This document shows, piece after piece, positions 1,452-15,097 of a stretch of DNA of 34,042 nt. The DNA is from an uncultured virus (IMG/VR IMGVR_UViG_3300011587_000017). Its lineage: Duplodnaviria > Heunggongvirae > Uroviricota > Caudoviricetes. The translations under genes and the position numbers were made by a program. How positions within the stretch are numbered: position 1 is the stretch's first letter; the number at the start of each line of letters is the position of its first letter. The stretch lies in the IMG/VR virus record IMGVR_UViG_3300011587_000017, positions 62,001-96,042 of that record. One strand, written 5' to 3'. The notes below the pieces were generated by a model that had not been told where the DNA came from, did no database searches, and saw only the letters and a list, made by a program, of their open reading frames with translations.

Positions 1452-1457
1452 GAACAC

Positions 1458-3311
1458 CTACCCATGAAGTCTTTTGGAGAGCTCACGCAGGCTCGGACGG
1501 GCCGATGCATTGCTGCCTTTGAGCTGTTCGTATCGTTTTTCGTACTCGAAACGGCAAAGGTTCTTGGCGGCCAAGGCATAGACAGTGCAGTCTAATGCTT
1601 CAGCACGCTTCTTTCCGATGCGTTCGAACGAGATGACCGGTCGGCCTTTGACGTACTTGATCTCGCGTCGCTCCGACGTGAACTGGTCAAACCATTCAGG
1701 CTGGAGCGTATTCGAGTACCGAAACGACTGCTGATCGCCCTTTTCCAAGGGCAAATTGACCAAAATGTCGGTTTTTACGGTATCAACACCCACGATATAG
1801 AGAGTGGCAGTACGGTTTCGCCGTTTGTTGCGGCTTGCCCGAAGAACCGGATGTGGTCCGGCCTGACCTTTAATGGCGACGATGCGTCGTGCCATCGTGT
1901 ATTCGCAAAAGTCATAGACGCGTTGCGTCATATTACCGTCGCCGGAGTCGACGCATGCCGCTTCGACACCAATTTCACCGCCGAGCGGATGCTTCCATCT
2001 CGTGGAAAGCAGTGCATCGAGCTCGTCCCAAGTCGATTGCAGTGTAGCGTTACCGCGAATGACGTAGTGGCCAAGAATGTAGCGATTATCTGGGCTATGC
2101 CCGATGAAAACCACTTCCAGACGGTCAGGCTGAACGTCGACGCCGGCTGTGATGTACGCAACCGCTTCGGGTATATCTTCCCGCCACTGGTTTGCCTCGT
2201 GATCCCAATCAAGGCCGAAGTCCTCAAGTCGGGTCAGAAGTTCGTTTGCGCTGACATAGTTGATCGCGGTGGACCAAACACGGCCGAGCACGGTGTTGTA
2301 AAACACCTGCATATCCGAAGGACCATTTTTGACGGCCTTTTCGTATTCTTCGGCCAGTTTTGCCCATGACGCGTTCGCAAACTGCGAAACCAGCGCATTT
2401 AGACGGAAGCCAGCATGGTTTTTGACTTCCGGCCGCATAGCCCGCCATTCACCATCCTCGACCATTTGCGGCTTGTACCGCTCCTCGATCTCGGAACCGC
2501 AGTGCGGGCAGATGCAGACGGCCTTTTCGGGCTCCCCTCGTGGCCAATCGATGTGCTGCCAGAGCATTTCGAATGGCGTATCGCAGTGGATACAGGGCAC
2601 TTCAAAGATTCGCTGATCAGACTCGTCGTACCTTTTGAGGACGATAGATTTCGCTTCGTCAGTAGGCGTAGAGCCAATTACGATCTTGCGATCAGCGAAA
2701 GACGTGGTGCGCTTTTCCGCCAGCTTGATTGGATCACCTTCATTGGTGATTTCCATGCCGTCGACCTCATCCGCCAGCAGCACTTTGGCTGTGTGACGGC
2801 GAAGGTTACGCGGAGCGCGCGCCGATAGGATTTTCAGCGATCCACCACCTTGCATGGAGCGCTGAGTAAGTGTGTTACGGCCGTCGAACCGACCAATTCG
2901 CATCACCTCTCGGAGCGCTGGGCTCTCACGGAAAGCGGGATCGATTTCGTCAACAGCGATACCGCGGGCGTCGTCGTCCGTCGGCATAAGAAGAATGATC
3001 GGGCACGGGTCATTAACCGCGATGGCGCCGATTGCAGCAACCAAACCGACGGTGTAGCCGGTTCGGGCAGATTTGATCACGGAAACCCGCTCAATTGTCG
3101 GGTCACCAATCGCGTCGAGAATGCCTCTCTGGTACTTCCATGGGCGAAAACGACCAGGCGCCGAAGACGACGCCTTACTTAATCGGAAATTTTCAGCAGC
3201 CCATTGCGAGTACGATAGCTTATCTGGCGGGCGCAAAGCCTTCGCCAAGCCACGTGCAAGCACGTGGACTGCGTTACTTGCCACTTTTGAAAGACCTCTT
3301 GTCGCCGGCAA
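1458..3311 (-). CDS. terL: Terminase large subunit, lambda GpA family
   Basis: Deviant Walker A KSARTGYT, Walker B LLADEVD, GSTPT motif, CxxC pairs, nuclease motifs TAGVDVQ / VDSGDG / EALDC. True start may be GTG 3284. Confidence 0.95.
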   Translation of the reverse strand: MPATRGLSKVASNAVHVLARGLAKALRPPDKLSYSQWAAENFRLSKASSSAPGRFRPWKYQRGILDAIGDPTIERVSVIKSARTGYTVGLVAAIGAIAVNDPCPIILLMPTDDDARGIAVDEIDPAFRESPALREVMRIGRFDGRNTLTQRSMQGGGSLKILSARAPRNLRRHTAKVLLADEVDGMEITNEGDPIKLAEKRTTSFADRKIVIGSTPTDEAKSIVLKRYDESDQRIFEVPCIHCDTPFEMLWQHIDWPRGEPEKAVCICPHCGSEIEERYKPQMVEDGEWRAMRPEVKNHAGFRLNALVSQFANASWAKLAEEYEKAVKNGPSDMQVFYNTVLGRVWSTAINYVSANELLTRLEDFGLDWDHEANQWREDIPEAVAYITAGVDVQPDRLEVVFIGHSPDNRYILGHYVIRGNATLQSTWDELDALLSTRWKHPLGGEIGVEAACVDSGDGNMTQRVYDFCEYTMARRIVAIKGQAGPHPVLRASRNKRRNRTATLYIVGVDTVKTDILVNLPLEKGDQQSFRYSNTLQPEWFDQFTSERREIKYVKGRPVISFERIGKKRAEALDCTVYALAAKNLCRFEYEKRYEQLKGSNASARPSLRELSKRLHG

Positions 3312-3810
3312 TCACGCTCGCTTCGACTTCATCAGAGAGGTCGAGCAGCATGTCGCGAACCATATCGCGCAGGACTTCGCCATCGTGGGCGGTGAGATGG
3401 GGGATGCTGGTGCGCGCCTTGCTAGGCATCGTCAAAAGCATTCCTTTGATCACGCCTGCGAAAGCGGACCAGCTTGCTGAAACCTCATCAAGCGTTAGAA
3501 TTTCGCCTTTGAGCTGGGCAAGCTTGATGGCTTTGATCTCTTTATCGATCCGAGTTTCTTCAGCTCGTTCGTCTGCGAGATTGTTGCCGCCTTTTGTAGC
3601 CCTACCCGCTGCCTGCTCACGCAAGCGGCTGAGGTAGTTCTGAATGGACGGGAGCGTTTCGTACCGCCCTCTTCCTGCAGCTGGCACAAGGACGCCGGTG
3701 ACCTCCAGATCCCGGATAGATCGGATAGATATCCCTAGAAGGGTCGAAAGGTCAGCCTTGCTGCAAGTTTCGGGAATCCATACGCCGCCGACACTTGCTG
3801 CCTTAGCCAT
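3274..3810 (-). CDS. terS: Terminase small subunit, Nu1-like
   Basis: N-terminal wHTH (KADLSTLLGISIRSIRDL...GRGRYE) followed by a coiled coil; overlaps the terL start. Start moved to ATG 3810. Confidence 0.85.
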   Translation of the reverse strand: MAKAASVGGVWIPETCSKADLSTLLGISIRSIRDLEVTGVLVPAAGRGRYETLPSIQNYLSRLREQAAGRATKGGNNLADERAEETRIDKEIKAIKLAQLKGEILTLDEVSASWSAFAGVIKGMLLTMPSKARTSIPHLTAHDGEVLRDMVRDMLLDLSDEVEASVIAGDKRSFKSGK

Positions 3811-3818
3811 GACACATC

Positions 3819-4370
3819 CTAAATTCCGAGAGATAAGGTGACGTGGCGCGTCACTCGCTTTTCGAGATCCAGCGCAGCGAAGGATTCCGCTTGCGCAACG
3901 TTCGGTCGTGAGGGCTTCGCAAGTTCGTTTGCGAGCACAGCCATGTGGAGCTTCTTGAGGGGCTTCCGCTTCTTTGTTGTCCGGACGTAAACGTCGCTTC
4001 CGATCATGAAGGACTTGCGGAAGATCCTGCGGACGTTCCAGCCCGTTGCCTCTGTGCCTGGCATCGAGCGGTTCCACGACGGTCGACCGTAACGGCCGAG
4101 CGAAATAGCCTCATCCGCGGTGCGAACGGTTGCAGTCAGATTCATCGAGGACGCGCGGATGACCTTAGTTTTGGTATTAATCCGGCTTTTCGGAACGCCA
4201 GTTGTGGCAGCGATCCGGGTAACCGACTGACGTTTTTGCTCATCAGCGTGCTCGGAAACACCTCGCGCCATCGCAGAACGAAGCTCAGGGGACTGAATAG
4301 TCCTGATCATCTTATCGAATGCGCTCGAGCCATTGTATTTGACGTCAAGACGGTAATGAGGACCTGCCAT
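3819..4370 (-). CDS. gpZ-like minor tail / tail-completion protein
   Basis: 183-aa basic protein (AMARGV...RIAATTGVPKSRI...FRKSFMI...VYVRTTKKRKPLKKL) resembling the lambda gpZ family; in the late operon. Confidence 0.6.
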   Translation of the reverse strand: MAGPHYRLDVKYNGSSAFDKMIRTIQSPELRSAMARGVSEHADEQKRQSVTRIAATTGVPKSRINTKTKVIRASSMNLTATVRTADEAISLGRYGRPSWNRSMPGTEATGWNVRRIFRKSFMIGSDVYVRTTKKRKPLKKLHMAVLANELAKPSRPNVAQAESFAALDLEKRVTRHVTLSLGI

Positions 4371-4405
4371 CGTTGATGCGTCCCTAAATCAATGATACTT
4401 GGATA

Positions 4406-4426
4406 CGCACCGCCACAAACATCAAA
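4406..4426 (-). promoter_or_regulatory. Candidate late promoter/activator site, copy 1 (TTTRATGTTTGTGGCRGYRCG)
   Basis: 17/21 identical to 6053-6073. Upstream of gpZ-terS-terL-portal, with a TATCAT -10-like hexamer downstream. Confidence 0.5.
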
Positions 4427-4435
4427 GAAACTTCG

Positions 4436-4633
4436 ATGTCGCCACAAGATTTCCAAGCTTGGATTGATGAAATGAAAGCCGCCGCCCTTGCGCGCTCTGA
4501 TGCAGAGTGCGCGAGGCTGCTAGACATCTCTGCAAATGCCCTCATCGCTATTAAAAAGCGCGGCGGAGACCGTAGAACGGCTCTGGCCTGTCGGGCGCTT
4601 TTGCATCGGATGGAGCCATATGGCGGCGGCTAA
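4436..4633 (+). CDS. Small HTH DNA-binding protein
   Basis: 65 aa, SDAECARLLDISANAL HTH-like segment; opposite strand to the late operon. Confidence 0.65.
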   Translation: MSPQDFQAWIDEMKAAALARSDAECARLLDISANALIAIKKRGGDRRTALACRALLHRMEPYGGG

Positions 4634-4636
4634 GGC

Positions 4637-4879
4637 TCAAACTACGCCATTGCTGGCGGTGAGCCTGCCTTCCGCAATCTGTTTAAGACGGCGGGAGACC
4701 TCGCGGGGGCCGTTTGGAGTGTACCGGCGACGGCCGCCAGTTCGAACTCGCCTGCTTACGCCACGCGAACCTTTACGGGGCAAAGTGGACCAGAAGGGCT
4801 GCAACGGGACCAAAAAGCCTGCGATGCTGGAAAATGCAGATAGCATGACGCTCGCCATTGGTTTGAAACCAAAACGCAT
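4637..4879 (-). CDS. Hypothetical phage protein
   Basis: SD GGAG before ATG 4879; basic C-terminus PNGPREVSRRLKQIAEGRLTASNG. Confidence 0.6.
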   Translation of the reverse strand: MRFGFKPMASVMLSAFSSIAGFLVPLQPFWSTLPRKGSRGVSRRVRTGGRRRYTPNGPREVSRRLKQIAEGRLTASNGVV

Positions 4880-4926
4880 AATTCTCTCCAAATTTTAAGG
4901 TTGATGCCGGGATTACCCGCTTAACA

Positions 4927-5058
4927 CCGTTATATGAGCCTGCTTCGCAGCAGACAGGGGCGGCGGCGTTGCTTCTTCAGCGCGAACGTAGTCTTGGTCC
5001 TAGCTCCCGGCCGGCCAAGTCGGAAATTTCCCGCCCCTCGTGCACATCCGCCACGGCG
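4927..5058 (-). ncRNA. Putative structured ncRNA C, directly 3' of tRNA-fMet
   Basis: On the minus strand an AGGGGCGG/CCGCCCCT 8-bp stem encloses two hairpins, followed by a GTCTGCT-GCGA-AGCAGGC GNRA hairpin, with outer GCCGT/ACGGT closure. No credible ORF. Confidence 0.5.
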
Positions 5059-5062
5059 GATT

Positions 5063-5138
5063 TGGTTGCAGCGACCGGACTCGAACCGGTGATTTCCAGG
5101 GTATGAACCTAGCGGGATGACCACTTCCCTACGCTGCT
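5063..5138 (-). tRNA. tRNA-Met(CAT), initiator (fMet)-like
   Basis: Cloverleaf AGCAGCG...CTAGG-TTCATAC-CCTGG...GGTTCGAGTCC...CGCTGCA-ACCA; 1:72 mismatch; CCA encoded. Confidence 0.9.
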
Positions 5139-5150
5139 AAACTCTTGTGA

Positions 5151-5378
5151 TTAAATGTTTCCCGGCGCGTACTGGCGTGGGTTATTGGGATCGATCTTAC
5201 GCGGCATTGGCTCGCCAATCGGGAACAGACCGACCTGACCAAACCATGCAAAGCACCAGCTTACGGTTTCAAAACGAGCCGCACGTTCTTCATCTGGCGT
5301 CATAGCTGGGAAACCTTCGGCATCACATGGGCCGATAACCTTGCCGATGTATGGAAGGATGGTTCCAAAGATGCGCAT
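5151..5378 (-). CDS. Hypothetical protein within the tRNA cluster
   Basis: 75 aa; SD GGGAG upstream of the ATG. Confidence 0.6.
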   Translation of the reverse strand: MRIFGTILPYIGKVIGPCDAEGFPAMTPDEERAARFETVSWCFAWFGQVGLFPIGEPMPRKIDPNNPRQYAPGNI

Positions 5379-5390
5379 TGAGATCTCCCT

Positions 5391-5446
5391 AAAAAGAAAA
5401 CCTCGCCCGATGGCGGGGCTAAAAGACCGGATTATCCGGTTTTTTG
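5391..5446 (-). terminator. Tandem intrinsic terminator-like hairpins after tRNA-Gly
   Basis: Minus strand: ACCGGA-TAA-TCCGGT-CTTTT, then GCCCCGCC-ATCG-GGCGAGGT-TTTCTTTTT. Confidence 0.6.
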
Positions 5447-5450
5447 AAAC

Positions 5451-5524
5451 TGGAGCGGATAGCCGGGATCGAACCGGCGCAGACTGAGTGGAAATCAGGA
5501 ATGCAACCTCTACATCATACCCGC
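5451..5524 (-). tRNA. tRNA-Gly(TCC)
   Basis: GCGGGTA...CCTGA-TTTCCAC-TCAGT...GCCGG-TTCGATC-CCGGC-TATCCGC-TCCA; U73 discriminator; 74 nt. Confidence 0.9.
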
Positions 5525-5529
5525 TTAGT

Positions 5530-5685
5530 TCAGAACGGGCCGGACGCTACACCGGCTGCACTTAGGATCAAGGGCTTAGTTAACGTCTCTTATCCAGACT
5601 GTCTCTAGACATTGCCGTGTTCAGCAACCCGATGAACCTTGATCCCCATCGATTAGCGTGTCTGCTTTCCACGCCGCCGATCTGA
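5530..5685 (-). ncRNA. Putative tRNA-like ncRNA B (acceptor-, D- and T-like arms; anticodon arm replaced by a branched domain)
   Basis: TCAGATCGG/CCGTTCTGA closing stem, GGCGTG-GAAAGCAGA-CACGCT arm, GGGATCAAGG/CCTTGATCCT stem with internal hairpins, GCCGG-TGTAGCGT-CCGGC arm. Fills the Thr-Gly spacer. Confidence 0.65.
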
Positions 5686-5686
5686 T

Positions 5687-5762
5687 TGGTGCCGACAGCA
5701 GGAATTGAACCCGCACCCCCCGGTTTACAAAACCATTGCTCTACCAATTGAGCTATGTCGGC
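5687..5762 (-). tRNA. tRNA-Thr(TGT)
   Basis: GCCGACA-TA-GCTC-AATTGGTA-GAGC...ATGGT-TTTGTAA-ACCGG...GGTTCAATTCC...TGTCGGC-ACCA. Confidence 0.92.
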
Positions 5763-5769
5763 GTGAAAC

Positions 5770-6032
5770 TTCGGCTTCAGCAAAGGCATCCTGTGCCACC
5801 GGCTTGCGCCGTCATCCACCTGTCAGCGTAACTTTCCGCCGTGTCATCACGGGCCGTGCCGTGCCACCTACTAACGCTCTCCACCTCCAGCCTTACCTTC
5901 GGTTTCAACGAGACGCCTTCGCTCAGGATCTTTCAGGGACCACGTATGCGCCGGACACATCTTCTTTGGTATTCTGGCGGAGGTGCCCGCTATCCCTAAT
6001 TGACGAACACCCATGGGTTTTGCGGGCCGATT
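5770..6032 (-). ncRNA. Putative multibranched ncRNA A, 5' of tRNA-Thr
   Basis: Minus-strand helices GCCCGC/GCGGGC, CACCTCC/GGAGGTG, CCGTG-ATGA-CACGG, GGC-GCAA-GCC, ACC-GAAG-GT and an outer TCGGC/GCCGA. No credible ORF. Confidence 0.45.
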
Positions 6033-6052
6033 GACGTCTTTTCAGCGCGTCC

Positions 6053-6073
6053 CGTGCTGCCACAAACATTAAA
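6053..6073 (-). promoter_or_regulatory. Candidate late promoter/activator site, copy 2
   Basis: CGTGCTGCCACAAACATTAAA versus CGCACCGCCACAAACATCAAA at 4406; upstream of the ncRNA/tRNA cluster. Confidence 0.5.
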
Positions 6074-6149
6074 TTTCAATCATTTAACAGATGTTCCTCA
6101 ACCCCAAAGGGAGGAACCCCCTTTAAAAAAATAACTTCGCCGATTATTT

Positions 6150-6192
6150 GGGGTGCTGCGCCCCGCAGGCCATGCAAGACATATACGGTCCC
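6150..6192 (-). other. Putative cos site (cosQ-like GGGACCG plus cosN-like GGGCGCAGCACCC)
   Basis: Minus strand reads GGGACCG-N22-GGGCGCAGCACC, against lambda GGGTCCT-N23-GGGCGGCGACCT. Dyad GGGGTGC-T-GCGCCCC at 6150-6164. Oriented towards terS, and a GpA-type terminase is present. Confidence 0.65.
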
Positions 6193-6715
6193 TAAAGCTT
6201 TCTCGATGCATCGCATTTGCCGCAGCGCAGGCCATGGGTGCGCATTTGTATGTCATCATGTGGGCATACCCCACTCACAACAGACGCCTCTCTATGGGCT
6301 TCTATGTGGCTTTACATGGGACGGCTTCTAGCCTGGCTGTCATGCTACGCATCACCTCATCTATTGCCCCCTCATACCATGGGCCATGGCTTAGACTGGC
6401 ATGGCTTGCAAGTGTGGGTGCACAGGTAGCGGCAAGGCGTGCTTAGTGCTGATCGGTAAAGCGTATGGTCTAAGCCTTTGGGCCTTGCATTGGCTTGCTT
6501 ATGCTGCAGTGCGCATATGTCCCCATGCTATCGGTATGAACGGACATATACGCGGGGAGTGCTCACTCTGGCAACTAACATCATGAGTCGCGATTTAGTG
6601 TTAGGTAACATGGGGTTGACATTATGGGCCTATTGTTACCCCCTGCAGGCCCTACCCTAGACCGCAACTATTTAGCTGTTTTTGTGCTTTTTTTCGTATT
6701 ACCTGCATTTTGTGC

Positions 6716-6744
6716 TTGCATCATACGTAACTATAGATTACCTT
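6716..6744 (+). promoter_or_regulatory. Early promoter with embedded repressor operator
   Basis: TTGCAT-N17-TACCTT containing GTAA-CTATAGA-TTAC (6727-6741); same layout as the promoters at 23452 and 25273. Confidence 0.75.
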
Positions 6745-6869
6745 TAGATCATGGAAAGCGAAACGAAGCGCTAACCACCGACCGCAAGGAAAACAGGCAG
6801 AGGGCATGGTCTCTAGACCACGGCTGAACAGGCAAGCCCATAACGCCACGACCGAAAAGGCAAACTGAA

Positions 6870-7058
6870 ATGCTCAAGTGCATCAAGTTCCAGAATTATG
6901 ACCATGCCGCTGAAATGATGGGCTTTGCCATTGAAGATGGTCATGCCACAGCTTGGAATGTGAATGATAATGGCTTGGTTCGCTATCTCTGTGCAAAGTC
7001 TGGCTTCTGGCTTGATCTCACCAAGGGCACGTTCGCCGCATGGCAGTATGCGTATTGA
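6870..7058 (+). CDS. Small early hypothetical protein
   Basis: 62 aa; preceded by the start-associated motif. Confidence 0.7.
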   Translation: MLKCIKFQNYDHAAEMMGFAIEDGHATAWNVNDNGLVRYLCAKSGFWLDLTKGTFAAWQYAY

Positions 7059-7070
7059 AAGGTAACCAAC

Positions 7071-7205
7071 ATGAGCAAAACGAAAGGCCAACTTGATTAT
7101 GAGAACGCAGTGGCAAAGCGCCCCTTTTACGAGGACGGCACGCCGCGCAAGACGTGGGACGAGTTGCCAGACTATGCCAAATGGTCATGGGAAAGTCGTG
7201 CTTAA
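7071..7205 (+). CDS. Small early hypothetical protein (44 aa)
   Basis: Manual translation MSKTKGQLDYENAVAKRPFYEDGTPRKTWDELPDYAKWSWESRA; SD GAAAGGT. Confidence 0.7.
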   Translation: MSKTKGQLDYENAVAKRPFYEDGTPRKTWDELPDYAKWSWESRA

Positions 7206-7270
7206 GCCTTTTGGTTACCCGCTCACGGGCGGGCTTCCTGAATGCTTAACCAAGGGAAAGGGGTTTTACT

Positions 7271-7408
7271 ATGAAACACGCAAACGATAACAGCCGCCGC
7301 AACCGTGTCGTTACCATGGGCAACATGGGCCGCGTTCGCCGCGATGACCGCCGCCAGGCTATAGCAGCCAAGGCCGCGTATCTAAACGACGCCCTACGGG
7401 GCGCATGA
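7271..7408 (+). CDS. Small basic early protein (45 aa)
   Basis: Manual translation MKHANDNSRRNRVVTMGNMGRVRRDDRRQAIAAKAAYLNDALRGA; purine-rich SD. Confidence 0.6.
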   Translation: MKHANDNSRRNRVVTMGNMGRVRRDDRRQAIAAKAAYLNDALRGA

Positions 7409-7463
7409 CTAGAAACTGACTTTCTACCGGCGCTAGACGCCACGACCGCAAGGACAACCGAAA

Positions 7464-7697
7464 ATGAAAACCTTTATACTTCTGGCCTTTGTTTGGGGTG
7501 CTTCGCCCTCTCCTGACGTCTATGTCATTGACCACGGCCTTACAGGCGAAGATTGCATAGCCGGCCTCATAAACCCGCCGAAAGTGGGTTATGATGAAGA
7601 TGGTAAGGCTTTTGACGTCTCCACGGCAGAGATTGCTTGTGAACTGGATATCGACCCCGAGGAGCCTTGCAACTGCATTCTTGATGAGGATGATTAA
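7464..7697 (+). CDS. Small acidic hypothetical protein with a hydrophobic N-terminus
   Basis: 77 aa; preceded by the motif; Cys-containing, acidic tail. Confidence 0.7.
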   Translation: MKTFILLAFVWGASPSPDVYVIDHGLTGEDCIAGLINPPKVGYDEDGKAFDVSTAEIACELDIDPEEPCNCILDEDD

Positions 7698-7699
7698 GC

Positions 7700-7942
7700 A
7701 TGGCGGAACAGTTTGACACAATGCTGTTTGCTAAAGCGCTGGTAAAGCGCGGCATGTCCTCAAAGGACGCTATAGCCCTTGCGATTGAAGCTAAGGCGCA
7801 TATAGTGGATAGCATGGCAACGAAAACCGACCTTAGAACAGAGATTGCAAACAGTGAAATGCGGATGACTATTCGCATCGGCGGAATGTTTATCGTTGCC
7901 GTAACTGTAATCTTGGCGGTTTTGCCCTTTCTCCTGAAGTGA
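7700..7942 (+). CDS. DUF1640/CCDC90-like membrane-anchored protein
   Basis: FDTMLFAKALVKRGM...MATKTDL...C-terminal TM helix. Confidence 0.75.
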   Translation: MAEQFDTMLFAKALVKRGMSSKDAIALAIEAKAHIVDSMATKTDLRTEIANSEMRMTIRIGGMFIVAVTVILAVLPFLLK

Positions 7943-8063
7943 ACGGCGCGGCCTTCAGGCCGCCCACTATCAAGCCTCTTTGCCATGGGCGCGGATGTGC
8001 CCCTGTCATGGCGCCTTGACGCCTTCAACCGGGCTATATGCCCACGACCGCAAGGAAAATACG

Positions 8064-8696
8064 ATGTCTACTGTTTCCGTTAATGCCCGCCTGTTTCGTG
8101 CCGTTGCCGCTTTCGTCTCGTCGGATGAAGCGCGCTATTACCTGCAAGGCGTTCATATCGAACCCCATGCGAAAGGCGGCGTCATCATGGTCGCGACAGA
8201 CGGGCAGAAGCTCATGTGCGTATGGGACAAAGACGGCGCGATGAAGGGCGAAAATCCAATCGTGAAACTTGACAAGGCCGCGCTGAATGCCTGCAAAGCG
8301 GTTCGCGGCGAACAGGGAGACCGCCGAATTCTCATTGAAGGCAAGACCGCGACAATTCAGGACCACGAACACAATCCGGTTGCGACCGCTTACAACGTTC
8401 TGATTGACGGAACTTATCCATCATGGCGGCGAGTAATGCCTAACGTTCAAAACCCAGCGCCGTCAGCCTATGACGCCAAGTATCTTTCAATGTTCGGAGA
8501 CGCTTGCGGCGTTCTGCGCGATGATAAATGTAGCCAGATTTCACTTTATGGCGATGCAGACGGAGCGGCAATTGTGCGTTTTTCTAACATTGATTTTGCG
8601 TTCGGCCTACTGATGCCGCTGCGGTTCAACGGCGGCACGGGCTTGCCTGCCTTCATGAACGACCCCGAAGTCGAAAAGCCCGCTCAAGCCGCATAA
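8064..8696 (+). CDS. DNA polymerase III beta-clamp-like domain protein (210 aa)
   Basis: EARYYLQGVHIE...MVATDGQKL...IDGTYPSWRRVMP...LLMPLR resemble the DnaN middle and C-terminal domains. Start moved to ATG 8064. Confidence 0.7.
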   Translation: MSTVSVNARLFRAVAAFVSSDEARYYLQGVHIEPHAKGGVIMVATDGQKLMCVWDKDGAMKGENPIVKLDKAALNACKAVRGEQGDRRILIEGKTATIQDHEHNPVATAYNVLIDGTYPSWRRVMPNVQNPAPSAYDAKYLSMFGDACGVLRDDKCSQISLYGDADGAAIVRFSNIDFAFGLLMPLRFNGGTGLPAFMNDPEVEKPAQAA

Positions 8697-8797
8697 CGCA
8701 AGCCGCTTTTATCATAGGCGGGCAACCGTTCCGCCTATGCCATGGCCGCTTGTGGCTCAATTTGGGGCTTGCCCCACGACTGAACAGGAAAACGACC

Positions 8798-10285
8798 ATG
8801 CACATTGATGCAACTTATTCCCCTGAAGATGACAAAATCCGCCTCTACGCCACGTCACGACTGGACGCGGAAACATATGCAAGAGTGAAGGCGGCGGGCT
8901 TCAAGTGGGCACCGAAACAAGAATTATTCGTAGCTCCCAAATGGACTCCAGCCCGAGAAGATTTGGCCGTCGAGTTGGCTGGCGATATCCAAGCGGAAGA
9001 AATGACGCTTGCTGAACGGGCGGAGATCAAGGCCGAACGGCTGGAGGAATTGGCGCAAAAGCGGAACCGTGAAGCGGCGTCGATGAGCCGTTACGCTGAC
9101 GAACTTTCACAAGCTTTCTATATGGGGCAACCTATCCTCATTGGGCACCATAGCGAGCGCAAAGCCCGTAAGACGCAAGAACGTATGCACGCGGCACAAG
9201 GAAAATCCGTGAAGGCGGAAAAGGCCGCAAACTATTGGCTTTATCGTGCAACAGGCGTTGAATGTTTCGCCAATATGAAGAATGACCCGCGAACCCGCGC
9301 CAATCGAATCAAGACTCTACTCGCTGAATTGCGAGACCTGCAGCGCGACATTAACAGGGCACATAATACGCTAGATATTTGGGCAAAGTTCACGACTGAC
9401 GAACAGATTCGCCACGCGCTAGGCTGGTTGGACTCCCGCGATACAATGTCGGGTTGGGAAACCTTTTCAAAGGTTGATAAAGGTGAACTGGCACCATCTG
9501 AAGCCCGTTTGAAATGCATTGCCAATGCTGAGAACCTTATCAATGGCCCTAACCGCAAACGTTGCATTGAACACATTCTGAATCGTCTTGCGTTTGAACG
9601 TTCTATGCTTGGTGACGTTCCAAGATTTAACGGTGAATTGACGCCTGTCATCATTCAGGCGTTCGCCCGTGAACACGGCGCGGAAAAGCCGAAATGCACC
9701 ATTGCCGATGAAGGTTTTTATTTGCTGGAGTCGCCGGTCCCATTGCCAGCTCACATCAGTGAGAATTCATGGCTTGAGCTGAGCGGCGATGAGTGGCGCG
9801 ATGTTATGCAGGCGTGCGGTTATACCGTGCCAACGCCAAAGCCGCGCCGTGTATCCAGCAAGCCCGCGCCTGTTAGCTTGATCAATCCAACGCCGGAACA
9901 AGCGGAACAATTGCAGCGCATTTGGAACCTGCACATGCGTGCAGCGTGTCAGGGGCAATCATTTGTTACGCCGAAAGAGAATGCAGTCAGGGGGATTACA
10001 CAAGACATTTATTCACGCAATTCGAAGGGCGCATATTCGAAATATGAAACTGTCGAGATTGGCGCGGACGGTCGCCGCATTGAATGGAAATGGTTGCGTA
10101 TGGAACGTGTTTTGTCCGGTACGCCGGTTGCACGCATCCGCATTTATAGCGGCGGTTATGAAACCCATAAGCCGCGTGCGGTTGTGCAAATTACTGACAA
10201 GCCGTCAAAGGCGCTTCCAATTGACCTTGACGCTATTGAGCGTGAAGCGCTCGCAGCTATCACGGAAAAGGAGTCGGCGGCATGA
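8798..10285 (+). CDS. DUF3560 domain protein
   Basis: ATYSPEDDKIRLY...GFKWAPKQELFVAPKWTP...GQPILIGHHSERKARK. Start ATG 8798, after the motif. Confidence 0.8.
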   Translation: MHIDATYSPEDDKIRLYATSRLDAETYARVKAAGFKWAPKQELFVAPKWTPAREDLAVELAGDIQAEEMTLAERAEIKAERLEELAQKRNREAASMSRYADELSQAFYMGQPILIGHHSERKARKTQERMHAAQGKSVKAEKAANYWLYRATGVECFANMKNDPRTRANRIKTLLAELRDLQRDINRAHNTLDIWAKFTTDEQIRHALGWLDSRDTMSGWETFSKVDKGELAPSEARLKCIANAENLINGPNRKRCIEHILNRLAFERSMLGDVPRFNGELTPVIIQAFAREHGAEKPKCTIADEGFYLLESPVPLPAHISENSWLELSGDEWRDVMQACGYTVPTPKPRRVSSKPAPVSLINPTPEQAEQLQRIWNLHMRAACQGQSFVTPKENAVRGITQDIYSRNSKGAYSKYETVEIGADGRRIEWKWLRMERVLSGTPVARIRIYSGGYETHKPRAVVQITDKPSKALPIDLDAIEREALAAITEKESAA

Positions 10286-10884
10286 ACCCAAATGTTTACA
10301 AGCGCCCCAATAAACCAAGGTTTGTTTCTGTCAAACAGCGCGACGATTTTGCGCCAATTGCCAAAGCTGAACCTATCGAGATTATCGCTGTAGACAAGGC
10401 TACTGAGTGCCATGTCACGCCTGATGATGTAGCTGACCGCATGGTCGGCTACTTAGGGCCGACGGGCGATTACCTGACGCTCGAACCAAGCGCCGGAACC
10501 GGTCAGCTCACAAAGGCGCTTTTACGGTCTGGACATAGTCAGTTCGAAATAACCCAGATCGAACGGCACATTAAGCTCGCGGCGGGCCTGCACAAATTTG
10601 GCCCCGTAATTAACCGCTGCTTTCTCGAATATGCGTCTGAAGCCAATGGGAAAGTTGAATTCCCGCGGGTGATAATGAACCCGCCTTTTCGGGAAGTCAG
10701 AAAACACATCGCCGCAGCCTTGAGTCTAATGGGTCGCAATGGGCACGAGTGCGCGCCATGCTTGGTGGCACTTGTACCGGTCACGTTTGAGCACTCGGGC
10801 GCCGAACTATTGGAAGTTCTTTCACCTGACACGTTTGCGACGGCGAAGGTTAACACCAAGATAATTCGTATCGTGAAAGGCTGA
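10282..10884 (+). CDS. SAM-dependent amino (N6A/N4C) DNA methyltransferase-like
   Basis: TPDDVA, LEPSAGTG (motif I), MNPPF (motif IV); ATGA overlap with the DUF3560 gene. Confidence 0.8.
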   Translation: MNPNVYKRPNKPRFVSVKQRDDFAPIAKAEPIEIIAVDKATECHVTPDDVADRMVGYLGPTGDYLTLEPSAGTGQLTKALLRSGHSQFEITQIERHIKLAAGLHKFGPVINRCFLEYASEANGKVEFPRVIMNPPFREVRKHIAAALSLMGRNGHECAPCLVALVPVTFEHSGAELLEVLSPDTFATAKVNTKIIRIVKG

Positions 10885-10888
10885 TTCA

Positions 10889-11185
10889 ATGCTGAATTTC
10901 ACAAGCGACCAACTTTTCAACTGTTGCACGCGCTTTGCTCCTCCTGACTGGTCCGAGTTGGTAAGTCTGGAATTGGGCGCTTGCCGCACTGAAAGCCAAG
11001 AGAACGGCGACGAATTCACAATCGGCGGTCTGGATCGCGACAAAGCGGAATTCTTCACTGTCTACGCTCGTGACAAGGAAGGCTATGCAGACGCAATAAC
11101 CGATATCCCGAAATTCTTCGCCGGTTGCCTCATCATGGCGGAACTATCCCGCATAAGCGGCCTTCCCGCCTCTGTAGTCTGCTGA
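10889..11185 (+). CDS. Hypothetical protein
   Basis: 98 aa, tightly packed in the operon. Confidence 0.65.
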   Translation: MLNFTSDQLFNCCTRFAPPDWSELVSLELGACRTESQENGDEFTIGGLDRDKAEFFTVYARDKEGYADAITDIPKFFAGCLIMAELSRISGLPASVVC

Positions 11186-11226
11186 ATTAACCCGCGCTCT
11201 AGCGCACGACTGAAAAGAGAAAAACA

Positions 11227-11361
11227 ATGATCCGTGATTTTATCAGCCTTTGCGCTGTTGTTTCCTTCGTGACCGTTTTCACGCTCTGGGCTTCCGTTGC
11301 CACAAGCTCCAACGTCACTGAACAGCGCCCACAGTTTGCACAGGTGGAGGACTCGAAATGA
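11227..11361 (+). CDS. Small membrane peptide (44 aa)
   Basis: Manual translation MIRDFISLCAVVSFVTVFTLWASVATSS...; preceded by the motif; ATGA overlap with the next gene. Confidence 0.65.
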   Translation: MIRDFISLCAVVSFVTVFTLWASVATSSNVTEQRPQFAQVEDSK

Positions 11362-11603
11362 AAATTTATTCAGTAGGCGTCACGATTTACGCCACCGTTT
11401 ACGTGCGAGGCGAGTCTGCCGAGTCCGCGCACGAGACAGCCGGCGAGTTGCGCAATTTGGCTGTGGAGGTTGAAGGCGATGACCACAACCTGTTCTGCGG
11501 CTTTGAATTCAACAATCCGGAACTGCCTGCACTCAGTATTAGTCCTTGCGTCACCATTGGTGACTTGGAGCCAGTTGCCAGCGTTGAAGAGGTGGCAGAA
11601 TGA
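11358..11603 (+). CDS. Small acidic hypothetical protein
   Basis: 81 aa; SD GGAGG. Confidence 0.7.
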   Translation: MKIYSVGVTIYATVYVRGESAESAHETAGELRNLAVEVEGDDHNLFCGFEFNNPELPALSISPCVTIGDLEPVASVEEVAE

Positions 11604-11869
11604 GACAGAATCGCGTGCCTGTTATGATGTCAGATGTCGAGTTGGCGTCGATAGATGAATGGCGCTGGCAGAACCGTATATCGACCCGCTCCGAAGCGAT
11701 CCGCCAGCTGTGCACCAAAAGCCTTGATGCTGACGATTTACTCGAAGCAATGCTGAATGCTGAGCGCTTTATTCGCGGCTTCGAAGACGACGAATTGCAG
11801 GAAGGCGTTACCGAACTGCTGGAACAATTGCGGTCAGTAATAGCCGATGCGGGAGGTAAGCCGACATGA
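11600..11869 (+). CDS. CopG/ribbon-helix-helix protein
   Basis: RVPVMMSDVELASIDEWR...TRSEAIRQL. Confidence 0.7.
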   Translation: MRQNRVPVMMSDVELASIDEWRWQNRISTRSEAIRQLCTKSLDADDLLEAMLNAERFIRGFEDDELQEGVTELLEQLRSVIADAGGKPT

Positions 11870-12060
11870 GACGCCAAAAGCTGTCCGTGGGCGACCGGAT
11901 CACCTTTAAGGCTGCAACTCGCGCAGGTAAGCCAAAACTGACGAGGGTAGTAAACGGATTTTGGGGCGATGGCCGGCCTACTGTGAGGGCTCACGGATAT
12001 GCTGACTTTGTCGTTAGCTGGAAAGAGATCCCAGCAATTCAACCTGTTGCCCAACGTTGA
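11866..12060 (+). CDS. Hypothetical protein
   Basis: 64 aa; SD GGAGGT; ATGA overlap. Confidence 0.65.
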   Translation: MRRQKLSVGDRITFKAATRAGKPKLTRVVNGFWGDGRPTVRAHGYADFVVSWKEIPAIQPVAQR

Positions 12061-12140
12061 TTGCTCTTAATGACGTTCAATATCTGCTATTGAGAATGTA
12101 AAATGCATTGAATCGAAATAGCCAACCGAAAGGAAACGGG

Positions 12141-12449
12141 ATGGCATACAAAGTCTATAAAAAGAACATGAGCCCGCAGGATTTCAGCGAGGCTCTAAAC
12201 GACGCAGGCATTACGCTTGACGACTTCGTAAAGCTGACAGGCAGGCATAGAGCACAGGCTCATCGGTATCTAACCGGAGAAGATGAGTCAGGCCCAACGC
12301 TAGCTGAAATTGTGATCGTTGAATTTCTAGCCGATAACCCCGGCCTCGTTCAGCCGATGCTAGAAATTGCGGCAGAATGGACAGACGCCGAACGGGAAAA
12401 CAGTGTTCCCAGAACTGAAGCTAGAAGAGCCAAGTTCGATAATAACTAA
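12141..12449 (+). CDS. HTH-like DNA-binding protein
   Basis: MSPQDFSEALNDAGITLDDFVKLTGRHRAQAHRYLTG; SD AAGGA before ATG 12141. Confidence 0.65.
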   Translation: MAYKVYKKNMSPQDFSEALNDAGITLDDFVKLTGRHRAQAHRYLTGEDESGPTLAEIVIVEFLADNPGLVQPMLEIAAEWTDAERENSVPRTEARRAKFDNN

Positions 12450-12485
12450 TCCGGCGCGTGCGCCACGACCGAAAGGAAAAACCAA

Positions 12486-13952
12486 ATGCATATCAATATC
12501 GGACAAACCAGCCTCAATCAGTTCGTCTCCCTGCCCCTCAAATTGGCCAACCGTCATGGCGTCATTGCTGGAGCCACTGGCACCGGCAAGACCGTGACAA
12601 TGCAGGCAATGATTGAACAGTTTTCCCGCGCTGGCGTGCCAGTCTTTGCCGCCGACATCAAAGGCGATCTCTCTGGAATCGCTGTAAAAGGCCAGCCAGG
12701 TGTCATTGCTGAGCGCTATGCCGAAATGGTCGGTTCTTACACTCCAGACGCGTGCCCGGTTCAATTCTGGGATATCTATGGTGACCATGGTGCTCCGATC
12801 CGCACATCCGTACAGGAAATGGGAACACAACTGCTTTCCACAATGCTGCAGTTAAATAATACGCAGTCCGGTGCGCTCGAAATAGCCTTTCGGATTGCAG
12901 AAGATGACAGAAGTTATCTTCTCACACTTAATGATTTGCGCTGGACGCTAAACGCCATGCTTGAGGAGCGCGAAGATGTAAGCCAGCGTTATGGCAATGT
13001 CACGGCTTCATCGATATCCGCAATTCAGCGCAATATTCTTACACTGGAAGCACAGGGCTGCGACAAGCTGTTTGGCGAGCCGCCCTTTGAGATTGCCGAT
13101 TTTCTGCGTATCGATGACAGCGGCCGTGGAGTGGTTAATCTTCTTGACGCGACGCAGCTAATTGAAGCGCCGCGAGCATATGCAATGCTGTTGCTGTTCT
13201 TGCTCACCAAACTGTTCAGGGAATTGCCGGAAGTCGGAGATTTGGACAAGCCAAAACTGGTTTTCTTCTTCGATGAGGCTCATCTGCTGTTCAAAGACGC
13301 GCCTAAGCCGCTTCTCGAAAGCATCGAACGGCTTGTGCGTCTGGTCCGATCGAAAGGCGTCGGCGTATTTTTTGCCTCTCAGGCCGCTTCCGACATTCCG
13401 GAGACAGTTCTGGCACAGCTCGGCACCCGAATTCAGCATGCCTTGCGGGCATACACACCTTCGGCTCAGCGGATGGTGAAAGCAACTGTAGCAGCTTTCC
13501 GGGTCAATTCGGCTCTCGACACATCCGCTGCTATTACTTCGATGGGAATTGGCGAAGCGCTCGTCTCCGTCATGAGTGAAGGCAATATCCCCTCGCCAGT
13601 TGAACGCGTCCGCATCTTACCACCGCGCGCGCAGGTCGGGCCGATCAGCAGCGAGCTACGTTCTGACTTGCTCCAGAAATCCGAGGAATATCTCAAGTTC
13701 TCCGAAGACTTACCCGACTTTGAACAGGCAGGGGTGTTTCGCAATCGGATGCTTGTGAAGAGAGGATTCCAACCAATGGAAGTGGACGTGAAATCCCCGC
13801 CCGCACCAGCGAATTGGCAGGAAATCTACGCTCCATTAGAGGAAATCAGCGACTTCCGCCCTCCTCGCAAACCAAGGTATGCTCTTCGGTTCTTTGTGGT
13901 ATGTGGAATGTTGTCGTTAACGCTAATCACTTTATCCTTTTGGATTCAGTAA
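12486..13952 (+). CDS. DUF853 (YjgR-like) HerA/FtsK-superfamily ATPase with C-terminal TM helix
   Basis: ANRHGVIAGATGTGKT, ADIKGDLSG, PEVGDLDKPKLVFFFDEAHLLF, RSKGVGVFF, QLGTRIQHALRAYTP. Confidence 0.9.
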   Translation: MHINIGQTSLNQFVSLPLKLANRHGVIAGATGTGKTVTMQAMIEQFSRAGVPVFAADIKGDLSGIAVKGQPGVIAERYAEMVGSYTPDACPVQFWDIYGDHGAPIRTSVQEMGTQLLSTMLQLNNTQSGALEIAFRIAEDDRSYLLTLNDLRWTLNAMLEEREDVSQRYGNVTASSISAIQRNILTLEAQGCDKLFGEPPFEIADFLRIDDSGRGVVNLLDATQLIEAPRAYAMLLLFLLTKLFRELPEVGDLDKPKLVFFFDEAHLLFKDAPKPLLESIERLVRLVRSKGVGVFFASQAASDIPETVLAQLGTRIQHALRAYTPSAQRMVKATVAAFRVNSALDTSAAITSMGIGEALVSVMSEGNIPSPVERVRILPPRAQVGPISSELRSDLLQKSEEYLKFSEDLPDFEQAGVFRNRMLVKRGFQPMEVDVKSPPAPANWQEIYAPLEEISDFRPPRKPRYALRFFVVCGMLSLTLITLSFWIQ

Positions 13953-14036
13953 ATTAGTTGATAAGAATTCTTAACAATGCCCATCACAAGCCACCCATCA
14001 CGAAGTGTAAATTGACTTTAATATGTCGTCATGAAA

Positions 14037-14222
14037 TGACCGTTACGGGTGCTGAACACAGGTATGTAGGCGGACAACGAACCTGAGATGGTGGTGTTAA
14101 TACAGCAGTGATTGCTTCGGTTTATCCCGAAGTGAGATCTGCACCGGGTGGTGTATTAAATTACAATATTCGGGTTGGGATAAGTCGAGGGCGTGCCTAC
14201 GCCGTGTTCAGAAATCCGGTCA
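14037..14222 (+). ncRNA. Putative ~185-nt rod-like hairpin RNA or structured leader
   Basis: Nested helices TGACCG/CGGTCA, CTGAACAC/GTGTTCAG, GTAGGCG/TGCCTAC, AACCTGA/TCGGGTT, TTAATACA/TGTATTAA, CTTCGG/CCGAAG; TTGACT at 14012. Confidence 0.6.
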
Positions 14223-14258
14223 GTATTGGCCGTTTTTGAATAAATGTAGGAAAAATTC

Positions 14259-14615
14259 ATGTCTGACGTAAATCATCGTCCGGCGTTGTCGTCACACGCC
14301 CTCGCCTTTGATGAATTCTTAAAACTGCCGTTCGTTCGTAGTCGCCCTAACGATGGAGCTCCGATTAATCGTTGGGTGCCGCCTGCAGGTTTGTCGTACG
14401 TCGATGCAAGCCGAACCGGCAAAACGTTCGCAGATGAATTCATGAACTATCTGCAGGATCATCCGAGTGAGATCGGAAGCAATAAATTAGGACTGATCGC
14501 ATCGGATATCGATTACAGCAACCCTTATACAAAGGGGTTCTGGGTCGGGTTCTTTGCAAGGATTGAAGTTTTAGCGACCAAGGTTTCTTCGAGAAATAAG
14601 CGGGCCGACGAGTAA
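14259..14615 (+). CDS. Hypothetical protein (moron-like)
   Basis: 118 aa; SD AGGA; has its own upstream region and a downstream terminator. Confidence 0.75.
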   Translation: MSDVNHRPALSSHALAFDEFLKLPFVRSRPNDGAPINRWVPPAGLSYVDASRTGKTFADEFMNYLQDHPSEIGSNKLGLIASDIDYSNPYTKGFWVGFFARIEVLATKVSSRNKRADE

Positions 14616-14622
14616 TCGGCAT

Positions 14623-14650
14623 AAGAAAAGGGGCGGTTTCCCGCCCCTGT
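14623..14650. terminator. Terminator between convergent genes
   Basis: AGGGGCGG-TTTC-CCGCCCCT with an A-tract on the left (U-tract for the minus-strand transcript). Confidence 0.75.
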
Positions 14651-15097
14651 TCACCATGCCTCAATTCCAGCTTCGTTGAGAATGCCTGCAATTTTGTCGG
14701 CGCCGTTATCCCTTTGTCGGCGAAACGTCGAATAAGGTATCTTCACTCTGTTGCATGCCGTTTTAGCTTGCACCTTGCGAACATCCCACATCACCGACAA
14801 CATCAGGCACCGTTTAAATCCCGGCTGTGCATTGAGAAGTCTGGGCCAAGCCTCAATGTGTTCGTTGCCATACAAAACCAGATCTTTCTGACTGACCTCA
14901 TGTGGCTTCCAGCGCTTTGGCCGTTTCTCGTCCGATTTAGCACTTGGCTGCGCCCATATTGGCCAATCATCGAACATTTCAGGCCAAAACCCTTTGCCGC
15001 CTTTTGGCTTCCAGCTTCCGCCAATGGCTTCCTCAATGGTCCAAGCCTTGACGAGCGCGGCTCGTACTGATTTTCCATCCCAGATGAGATCCCTCAT
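14651..15097 (-). CDS. Candidate late-gene regulator (Q-position protein with C-terminal HTH)
   Basis: Last gene of the cro operon; AKTACNRVKIPYSTFRRQRDNGADKIA HTH-like end. Confidence 0.55.
   Translation of the reverse strand: MRDLIWDGKSVRAALVKAWTIEEAIGGSWKPKGGKGFWPEMFDDWPIWAQPSAKSDEKRPKRWKPHEVSQKDLVLYGNEHIEAWPRLLNAQPGFKRCLMLSVMWDVRKVQAKTACNRVKIPYSTFRRQRDNGADKIAGILNEAGIEAW

Follow-up and report, generated by a model that had tools for sequence, protein, structure and literature searches.

The 34,042-nt stretch of DNA analysed here (the window) is the last 34 kb of the 96,042-nt IMG/VR provirus record IMGVR_UViG_3300011587_000017. It carries an operon in which a short motif, consisting of a small GC hairpin, the sequence ACGACY and a ribosome site, is repeated ahead of gene starts. 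Pfam scans of the 54 window proteins and of 74 proteins from the rest of the record indicate two prophages in tandem, and the window holds part of the second, a temperate prophage of an alphaproteobacterial host with a P2-type tail and a lambda-type portal. The motif operon contains small open reading frames (ORFs) and genes for DnaN-like, DUF3560, methyltransferase-like, ribbon-helix-helix (RHH), helix-turn-helix-like (HTH-like) and HerA-like proteins, and is an accessory operon, probably an early or anti-restriction one. A preliminary description had listed eight copies of the motif, and all eight are where it placed them. They are given here with the operon and a ninth, partial copy; the E values come from two covariance models, R1 and R2, which are described below.

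6740..14650, + strand: motif operon; leader conserved in relatives from about 6739, end at a convergent terminator-like palindrome (14629-14648)
6776..6793, + strand: leader copy 1, CACCGACCGCAAGGAAAA, no adjoining 4-bp hairpin
6808..6842, + strand: leader copy 2, hairpin GGTC-TCTA-GACC then ACGGCTGAACAGG; R1 E 1.1e-12
6846..6872, + strand: leader copy 3, CCACGACCGAAAAGG, no hairpin; serves ATG 6870 of the first gene (62 aa)
7429..7466, + strand: copy before the 77-aa gene, GGCG-CTAGA-CGCC-ACGACCGCAAGGAC...ATG; E 4.3e-5, model not built from it
8031..8066, + strand: copy before the DnaN-like gene, GGGC-TATAT-GCCC-ACGACCGCAAGGAAAA...ATG; E 2.8e-6, model not built from it
8764..8800, + strand: copy before the DUF3560 gene, GGGG-CTTG-CCCC-ACGACTGAACAGGAAAA...ATG
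11194..11229, + strand: copy before the 44-aa gene, GCGC-TCTA-GCGC-ACGACTGAAAAGAG...ATG
12109..12143, + strand: ninth, partial copy CCAACCGAAAGGAAAC, no hairpin, before the 102-aa HTH-like gene (ATG 12141); R2 E 0.066
12453..12488, + strand: copy before the HerA-like ATPase gene, GGCG-CGTG-CGCC-ACGACCGAAAGGAAAAA...ATG

The motif in the window

The exact core CACGRCYGNNNRG has nine matches on the two strands of the window against 0.61 expected, and none of 100 shuffles reached nine. Seven of the nine lie on the + strand of the one operon, between 6819 and 12476, and the two others (26625 and 33834) come without the rest of the motif. Allowing one mismatch dilutes the signal to 24 matches against 14.7 expected. 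Across the whole record ACGRCYGNNNRG occurs 13 times in the forward direction, seven of them in the motif operon, and twice in reverse. An unaided repeat search recovers the same family, as its repeats D1-D5. The covariance model R1, built from four copies and run over both strands of 98,042 nt, finds the two structured copies left out of it (E 2.8e-6 and 4.3e-5) and nothing else in the 96-kb record, the next match reaching only E 0.4.

In six of the eight copies a perfect 4-bp stem with a loop of 4-5 nt ends exactly at the base preceding ACGRCY. Such hairpin ends occur at 0.93% of positions in the background, which gives a binomial P of 1.7e-11 for six out of eight. Five different stems are found among the six (GGTC, GGCG twice, GGGC, GGGG and GCGC), and the loops vary as well, reading CTAGA, TATAT, CTTG, TCTA and CGTG. 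The claim that the first stem changes in sequence and stays paired thus holds for these six copies and fails for the leader copies at 6778 and 6848, which have no hairpin. On the model-fitted alignment all 36 cells of the six structured copies are paired, against 31-47% in slid controls, and three of the four stem pairs show changes on both sides. Beside the freely varying stem stands the near-invariant CACGAC, which has at most one change in seven of the eight copies.

All copies lie on the + strand of this operon, and ACGAC precedes ATG by 22, 22, 20, 22, 21 and 21 nt (first base to first base), which agrees with the spacing of 20-22 nt before six genes given in the preliminary description. 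Its remark that the motif is missing from the other operons was also right, for these have ordinary GGAG/GAGG ribosome sites and no such repeat.

Start codons, gene blocks and cassette exchange

A ribosome site makes up the 3' half of the motif. In three Rhizobiales genomes the 3' end of the 16S rRNA reads GGATCACCTCCTTTCT, and GAAAGGA is therefore a 7-nt Shine-Dalgarno (SD) sequence, as had been proposed. A second, covarying mini-stem around a GNRA loop had been proposed too. The correlation between CC/GG and CT/AG is real (three against three structured copies) and compatible with a 2-bp stem closing a GNRA loop, but both loop and mini-stem lie inside the SD. The copies with the T-A mini-stem also share GAAC/GAAA loops, and the switch may be a single event within the window genome. 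In the wider family described below this pair is CG in 11 cases and UA in six, on an alignment that is ambiguous there.

The module is locked to the start codon and not to the upstream stop, since the gaps from stop to hairpin span 4 to 89 nt. Genes without a module overlap or nearly abut the preceding gene (10285/10282, 11361/11358, 11603/11600, 11869/11866 and 7697/7700), and the 44-aa gene behind one module heads a translationally coupled block at 11227-12060. Modules head gene blocks that are translationally independent of the preceding gene. Two of the leader copies had been described as having no ORF behind them, and the motif for that reason as more than a ribosome site. This argument is weakened by two features of the leader: an AUA at 6840, 20 nt past copy 6808 and at the place of a start codon, is in frame with ATG 6870 with no stop between, and an AUG at 6806, 27 nt past copy 6778, opens a 20-codon upstream ORF that ends 1 nt before ATG 6870.

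The same anchoring bears on a reading of the module as an intercistronic RNA-processing site, with cleavage of the A/C(U)-rich flank or of ACGAC by RNase E or another endonuclease. After the cut, the hairpin would close off the downstream mRNA at its 5' end, or the upstream mRNA at its 3' end, and each block would have its own half-life. Hairpins that stabilise mRNA at its 5' end, and others that lie between cistrons, are well documented in E. coli ompA and the Rhodobacter puf operon, and the hairpins here do sit in single-stranded A/C-rich flanks between the blocks of a long operon, with larger terminator-like hairpins lacking a T-run upstream of two copies (7945-7965 and 8715-8741). Processing seems distinctly unlikely all the same, as it is the start codon, and not the end of the upstream gene, that fixes the position of the module, pairing in the stems is weak, and the leader copies have no upstream gene to protect.

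Several transcriptional and pairing roles were considered and rejected. A sigma-70 promoter would have an ATG just 20-22 nt away, and no such site is found at any module; the region has seven promoter-like sites against 6.8 expected, none at a module. No RNA polymerase gene is present among the 54 + 74 scanned proteins, no sigma factor was seen either, and a T7-like or N4-like phage RNA polymerase promoter was set aside for want of the polymerase gene. An intrinsic terminator does not fit either, as the hairpins are followed by ACGACY instead of T and no terminator-like site of the + strand lies at the modules. Pairing of ACGACY with 16S rRNA was dropped, since AGTCGT occurs once in the 16S of two Rhizobiales genomes, as expected by chance for a 6-mer.

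The two longer GC hairpins without a T-run both lie on the + strand, 3' of the preceding gene and 65-25 nt upstream of two motif copies. They read GGCGCGGCC-TTCA-GGCCGCC (window 7945-7965) and CATAGGCGG-N9-CCGCCTATG (8715-8741).

Near relatives of the operon were found as contigs of four public sequencing runs, which cover most of it at 80-97% likeness; the differences were judged from 40 listed of 963. The 15 sequencing runs listed include no RNA run. The relatives retain every module-bearing intergenic segment and exchange the neighbouring genes. Genes are replaced or deleted at 7062-7195, 7681-7925, 10688-11006, and 11278-11994 or 11307-12047, one relative has a 482-nt insertion at 12409-12448 whose right edge is 5 nt before a hairpin, and in one relative the 143 nt before 6739 are replaced and the leader is kept. 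The listed indels at 7423 and 11188 fall just 5' of hairpins, outside the module.

A recombination handle for shuffling cassettes had been offered as one role of the motif, and the comparison of related phages suggested for it shows that swaps do not break there. About 13 cassette joints (26 edges) are seen in the four relatives, and of these edges one abuts a module and one more lies within 40 nt; modules and their margins make up about 6% of the stretch, so that some 1.6 edges would be expected there by chance. A role as recombination handle is therefore not supported. More broadly, the module might act at the DNA level as a handle, as a cassette boundary similar to those of promoter early stem-loop (PeSL) cassettes or attC sites, or as a hairpin signal in single-stranded DNA. 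The mosaic operon of the relatives, the insertion edge next to a hairpin, and the presence of modules before unrelated genes in several phages all invite this idea. We consider it the least probable of the readings weighed here, given the joints, a shared core of only about 18 nt with differing stems, the lack of promoter-like sites at modules, and the fact that no integron-type integrase is seen in the window. Integron attC sites as such were rejected, since there is no integrase of that kind in the window and inspecting its sequence showed no core sites that match.

Related elements in other prophages and in hosts

Other loci were fetched for comparison and are labelled L005-L245. Outside the window R1 has one match, in L154 (E 7e-4), reading GCCA-ATTG-TGGC-AACCGAAAGGAAAAC...ATG and preceding a DnaN-like orthologue (33% identity); L154 has one more copy, ahead of an unrelated gene. 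The broader model R2, built from eight copies and used at a threshold of E<=0.5, matches the arrangement hairpin-A(CG)ACY-GAAAGGAA-N-ATG in the window and in five prophage contigs (L154, L167, L011, L022 and L149), and all 19 matches from these six sources are on the operon strand. Family members of L011 also occur in L012 and L013. The family consensus is an A/C-rich flank, G-NNN-loop-NNN-C, A(CG)ACY, GAAA, RGGAAA and ATG. ACGAC is not universal in it, as the wider family has hairpin-AACC-GAAAGGAA without CG, the type to which the partial copy at 12109..12143 belongs. The window variant is set apart by the inserted CG and its variable loops; an AYYG loop with a CA/UG closing pair is common to L154, L167, L011, L149 and L022.

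Of 111 stem cells in the 19 members, 96.4% are paired, against 65.8% in shuffles and 23-49% in slid controls. The fifth stem pair of L022, as read from the sequences, alternates between A-T and G-T, which pairs as RNA on the coding strand only. The 20 proteins downstream of family members include only four homologous pairs, so the element stands before largely unrelated genes, and it is restricted to one type of operon, its loci sharing DnaN-like, DUF3560, methyltransferase and HerA homologues.

A further element, which R2 does not match, is found in L021/L233 (a Bradyrhizobium sp. Tv2a-2 contig, 1700-12800). There, at 14 of 16 AAGGAGAC sites, a GC hairpin whose stem is free and whose loop, (T)TCGCAG, is fixed lies 8-14 nt ahead of the SD CAAGGAGACCA. 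Its operon, with DnaN-like, DUF3560 and methyltransferase homologues, is of the window type.

Searches beyond these loci gave little. Rfam 15 has no family matching window 6000-15000 on either strand at E<=1, which answers a search that had been suggested. BLAST of the operon against named phages returned six records, each with at most 5% coverage and all in the HerA gene or a 51-nt stretch, and BLAST of single modules returned nothing better than E 0.2. A scan of metagenomes with the 77-aa protein gave three distant loci without the motif; with the DnaN-like protein, a single-protein scan gave no locus, and an alignment-based scan gave 80 loci with no R1 match below E 0.09. A regular-expression search for the window's own variant found no copy in 24 DUF3560 loci, 26 HerA loci and 69 genome loci. 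Scanning viral contigs for the exact pattern CCACGACCGNAAGGA gave at least 118 single, chance-like matches, none of those listed having a hairpin or several copies. No description of such an element, or of DUF3560 operons, was found in the literature.

Host chromosomes were also examined. The order to which the closest named relative belongs was represented by 401 genomes, with 0-8 occurrences of CCACGACYGNRARG per strand, similar to a backward-read control (0-11), and a genome-wide host repeat of the type of repetitive extragenic palindromes or miniature inverted-repeat transposable elements was rejected on these counts. Five host places that were inspected lack the hairpin-SD-ATG context, one of them having a chance 4-bp stem. 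In 61 genomes CAACCGAAAGGAA has eight matches in host genes against three for the control. Roughly half of the eight stand before an ATG, and one has a hairpin; the core is therefore an ordinary good ribosome site for these hosts.

The general architecture is likewise widespread. The fetched loci have 736 SD-ATG starts, and 16.6% of these have a GC hairpin whose end falls at -19 to -25, compared with 9.8% further upstream and 4.9% at -5 to -11, and the bias persists when four repeat-rich loci are removed (14.9% against 9.7%). The A/C-rich 4-mers CAAC, TAAC, ACCA, AACC and CCAC are enriched 2-2.8x just upstream of the SDs of these loci, and in 15 of 38 DnaN-like orthologues the end of a GC hairpin lies 15-30 nt ahead of the start. 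The layout is therefore a general one, and what is special to the window operon is its dense, sequence-conserved repetition.

Such a background could make the module a neutral relic, a good ribosome site spread by duplication or along with cassettes, whose hairpin has no function of its own. That CCAC(G)...AAGGA, a part of the motif, also precedes DUF3560 orthologues in many Rhodobacterales and Rhizobiales elements would agree with this, as would the A/C-rich leaders that are general in the fetched loci. We judge it very unlikely, because five different stems in six copies are all paired and abut ACGRCY at the same base (P 1.7e-11), and because six prophage contigs retain the family ahead of genes that are unrelated.

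Some of the fetched loci contain repeats of other kinds; L022, L007 and L008 are, like L021/L233, loci of the window's operon type with repeated hairpins of their own before SDs. L022 has a second repeat at 3680-10020, CC(C/T)CGGC-TACG-GYYGA-TTT(T), in about 15 copies upstream of genes and often paired 27 nt apart; its 5-bp stem has a UACG loop and is followed by a T-run, and the 3' arm has changed mainly from C to T, so that in RNA the G-U pairs would persist. In L007 (5900-11060) and L008 (5562-8040) a hairpin CCCC-N3-5-GGGGGAAT is repeated whose 3' arm is the SD (e.g. CCCCCTACCGGAGGAATAGAAATG), and which would, from its sequence, be a sequestered ribosome site. The HerA-containing viral locus L171 has a 17-bp palindrome, ATCAACATAATGTTGAT, about nine times (e.g. 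1140, 2277, 6989 and 9454), which looks operator-like or stoperator-like. L014 has about 30 tandem 18-bp units (CGCACRGGTTTCCGRC-like) at 3800-4320, adjoining a DUF3560 homologue.

Function, known systems and prophage setting

The preliminary description had taken the motif for a cis-acting RNA element, among other possibilities. A reading at the level of mRNA does account best for an element that is strand-specific, locked to start codons, and kept in its stem through compensatory changes. We favour, with a probability of roughly 0.45, a translation-initiation module of the mRNA with a boundary or stabilising hairpin. Its parts follow one another as an A/C-rich flank, a GC hairpin free in sequence but kept in its pairing, an unstructured spacer, the SD, and an A-rich spacer with the AUG. 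The conserved spacer is ACGACY in the window phage and AACC in related phages, and GAAAGGA is an extended SD. Each block whose translation is not coupled to that of the preceding gene begins with one module. The hairpin, ending at -21 to -23, would lie at the 5' edge of the 30S footprint and could form a structural boundary, so that coding RNA further upstream does not pair with the ribosome site; perhaps it would also offer a docking or standby surface, or block decay from the 5' side after intercistronic cleavage. The outcome would be that unrelated, often-swapped genes are given equal, strong and context-independent initiation. In such a scheme the hairpin would insulate or stabilise with no need for a dedicated factor.

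A number of observations weigh against this. The pair counts depend on alignments fitted to the model, the model that selected and aligned the family matches favours paired stems, the copies within one genome are all paralogues, and conservation inside the modules is documented only by the 40 listed differences. The hairpins are also weak: minimum free energies (MFEs) in 53-nt windows are -6.1 to -9 kcal/mol, with z-scores against shuffles of -0.06 to -0.5 for five gene copies; copy 6808 alone reaches -1.8, and the whole leader has -0.32. A pure insulator would not need a near-invariant CACGAC, three tandem leader copies exceed the need of one gene, and the conserved loops of single lineages (AYYG, and TTCGCAG in L021) look like recognition sites.

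These last points lead to another reading, in which a trans-acting reader specific to the lineage, either a phage protein or a host factor, would bind the module. Candidates are the protein p45 encoded within the operon (7271-7408), the HTH or RHH protein of the operon, and a host factor; the reader would repress, activate or time the translation of all module genes, or antiterminate, and the tandem leader copies would be its loading or titration site. The near-invariance of CACGAC, which a ribosome site does not require, suggests such a factor. So does the fact that each lineage has its own signature beside a free stem (the 3' flank here, the AYYG loop, and the TTCGCAG loop of L021/L233), and so do the three tandem copies of a leader that one relative conserves from about 6739 although the 143 nt before it are replaced. 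Small basic proteins are at hand as well, namely p45 and a 34-aa ORF rich in lysine and arginine behind one L022 module.

p45 is an arginine-rich ORFan of 45 aa with 11 lysines and arginines, and is a real gene because its five listed differences in the four related contigs are all synonymous. It matches nothing in Pfam or PHROG and no known antiterminator family, a search of 5.8 billion proteins found only two clusters, and p45 has no homologue in the other family loci. The small operon proteins have no N-family match at E<=5. Further points against a reader are that the hairpin loops of the window phage are not conserved, that the AACCGAAAGGAA core serves as an ordinary ribosome site in host genes, and that no antisense copy of the motif is found at up to four mismatches in the window's prophage. 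We regard a trans-acting reader as a serious rival, though less probable than the initiation module. A more specific version is a long shot: here the modules would be operator RNAs of a new phage post-transcriptional regulon, each lineage with a small cognate reader (in this phage p45, as an N/Tat-like arginine-rich peptide), which would recognise the signature of its lineage beside the free stem (CACGAC here, the AYYG or TTCGCAG loop elsewhere), switch swappable early anti-defence genes on or off together and use the leader copies as loading site.

An antisense-RNA target box of the P1 c4 type was rejected, as three 18-nt variants of the motif have no reverse-strand match at up to four mismatches in the window's prophage. 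The rest of the record has two distant reverse-strand matches to such variants, at four mismatches.

The closest described analogue, from Pope et al. 2011, is the start-associated sequences (SAS) and extended start-associated sequences (ESAS) of Cluster K mycobacteriophages. The SAS consensus there is GGGATAGGAGCCC, 13 bp long and 3-7 bp before the start, with function given as unknown; about half of SAS have an upstream inverted repeat, and ESAS are 17-bp inverted repeats with conserved half-sites. Changes in the ESAS arms do not support RNA pairing in that account, which favours a DNA-binding protein (PMC3203893). Like SAS and ESAS as described there, the window motif is a short asymmetric repeat in one orientation among non-structural genes, stands before the starts of unrelated genes, and joins an SD core to conserved bases that 16S pairing does not explain. 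Unlike SAS, whose hosts are actinobacteria, its core CACGACYGNRARG is unrelated in sequence and 20-22 nt before the ATG, and unlike ESAS, its stems are 4-5 bp, free in sequence, 100% paired and changed in a compensatory manner. The likeness drawn in the preliminary description, of an analogue that is structural, is borne out in position and logic.

PeSL cassettes of T4-type phages, as described by Arbiol et al. 2010, consist of a sigma-70 promoter and a terminator and mediate recombination (PMC2839356). They share with the modules the form of small repeated stem-loop cassettes flanking non-essential, often-exchanged genes. The modules differ from that description in having no promoter-like site and no T-run, and in that joints do not fall at them.

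Two regulatory systems invite comparison. The boxA/boxB nut sites of lambdoid phages have a conserved boxB loop read by N, with one site per operon arm. The window shares with them a short linear element and a small hairpin in a leader, a GNRA-type loop, and an arginine-rich small protein nearby; it is unlike them in that the hairpin-1 loops vary, the GNRA element is a 2-bp stem overlapping the SD, and 6-9 sites are tied to start codons. HTH regulators of the Aca type reportedly bind promoter DNA and also an RNA hairpin in the 5' untranslated region. The likeness is one of analogy only: in both ideas a regulator of the phage recognises a small hairpin close to the ribosome site of early anti-defence genes. 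An Aca homologue was not identified here, and the window site is repeated through the operon.

Accessory operons of phages swap genes constantly, and each incoming gene has to be expressed immediately. If the motif is a portable module for initiation, with a boundary, it would explain the uniform expression of unrelated cassettes and would be a natural counterpart to the insulated ribosome sites designed in synthetic biology. If dedicated factors read the signatures, the modules would define a new class of phage RNA operators, set over operons with orphan methyltransferases and other likely anti-restriction genes. Under either reading the family is a small, clean RNA motif that Rfam lacks, and six or more alphaproteobacterial prophage contigs carry it.

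The operon and its neighbours in the window are laid out as follows; EPSAGTG and NPPF are presumably the methyltransferase motifs of the protein at 10282-10884.

3-4077, - strand: lambda-type portal and terminase (Pfam scan)
5063-5762, - strand: three phage-borne tRNA genes, Met-CAT, Gly-TCC and Thr-TGT, between the packaging genes and the motif operon
7271..7408, + strand: arginine-rich ORFan p45
8064-8696, + strand: DnaN-like gene
8798-10285, + strand: DUF3560 gene
10282-10884, + strand: methyltransferase-like gene with EPSAGTG and NPPF
11600-11869, + strand: RHH protein gene
12141-12449, + strand: HTH-like protein gene, 102 aa
12486-13952, + strand: HerA-like ATPase gene
Convergent to the motif operon, - strand: replication operon with Cro-like, DnaB, Dda-like helicase and C5 methylase genes
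Rest of the window: CI-type repressor gene, then a RecT/exonuclease operon on the + strand

The other prophage of the record (record 1-62000) is HK97-capsid siphovirus-like, with an integrase at record 37529-38812 and a NusG-like gene.

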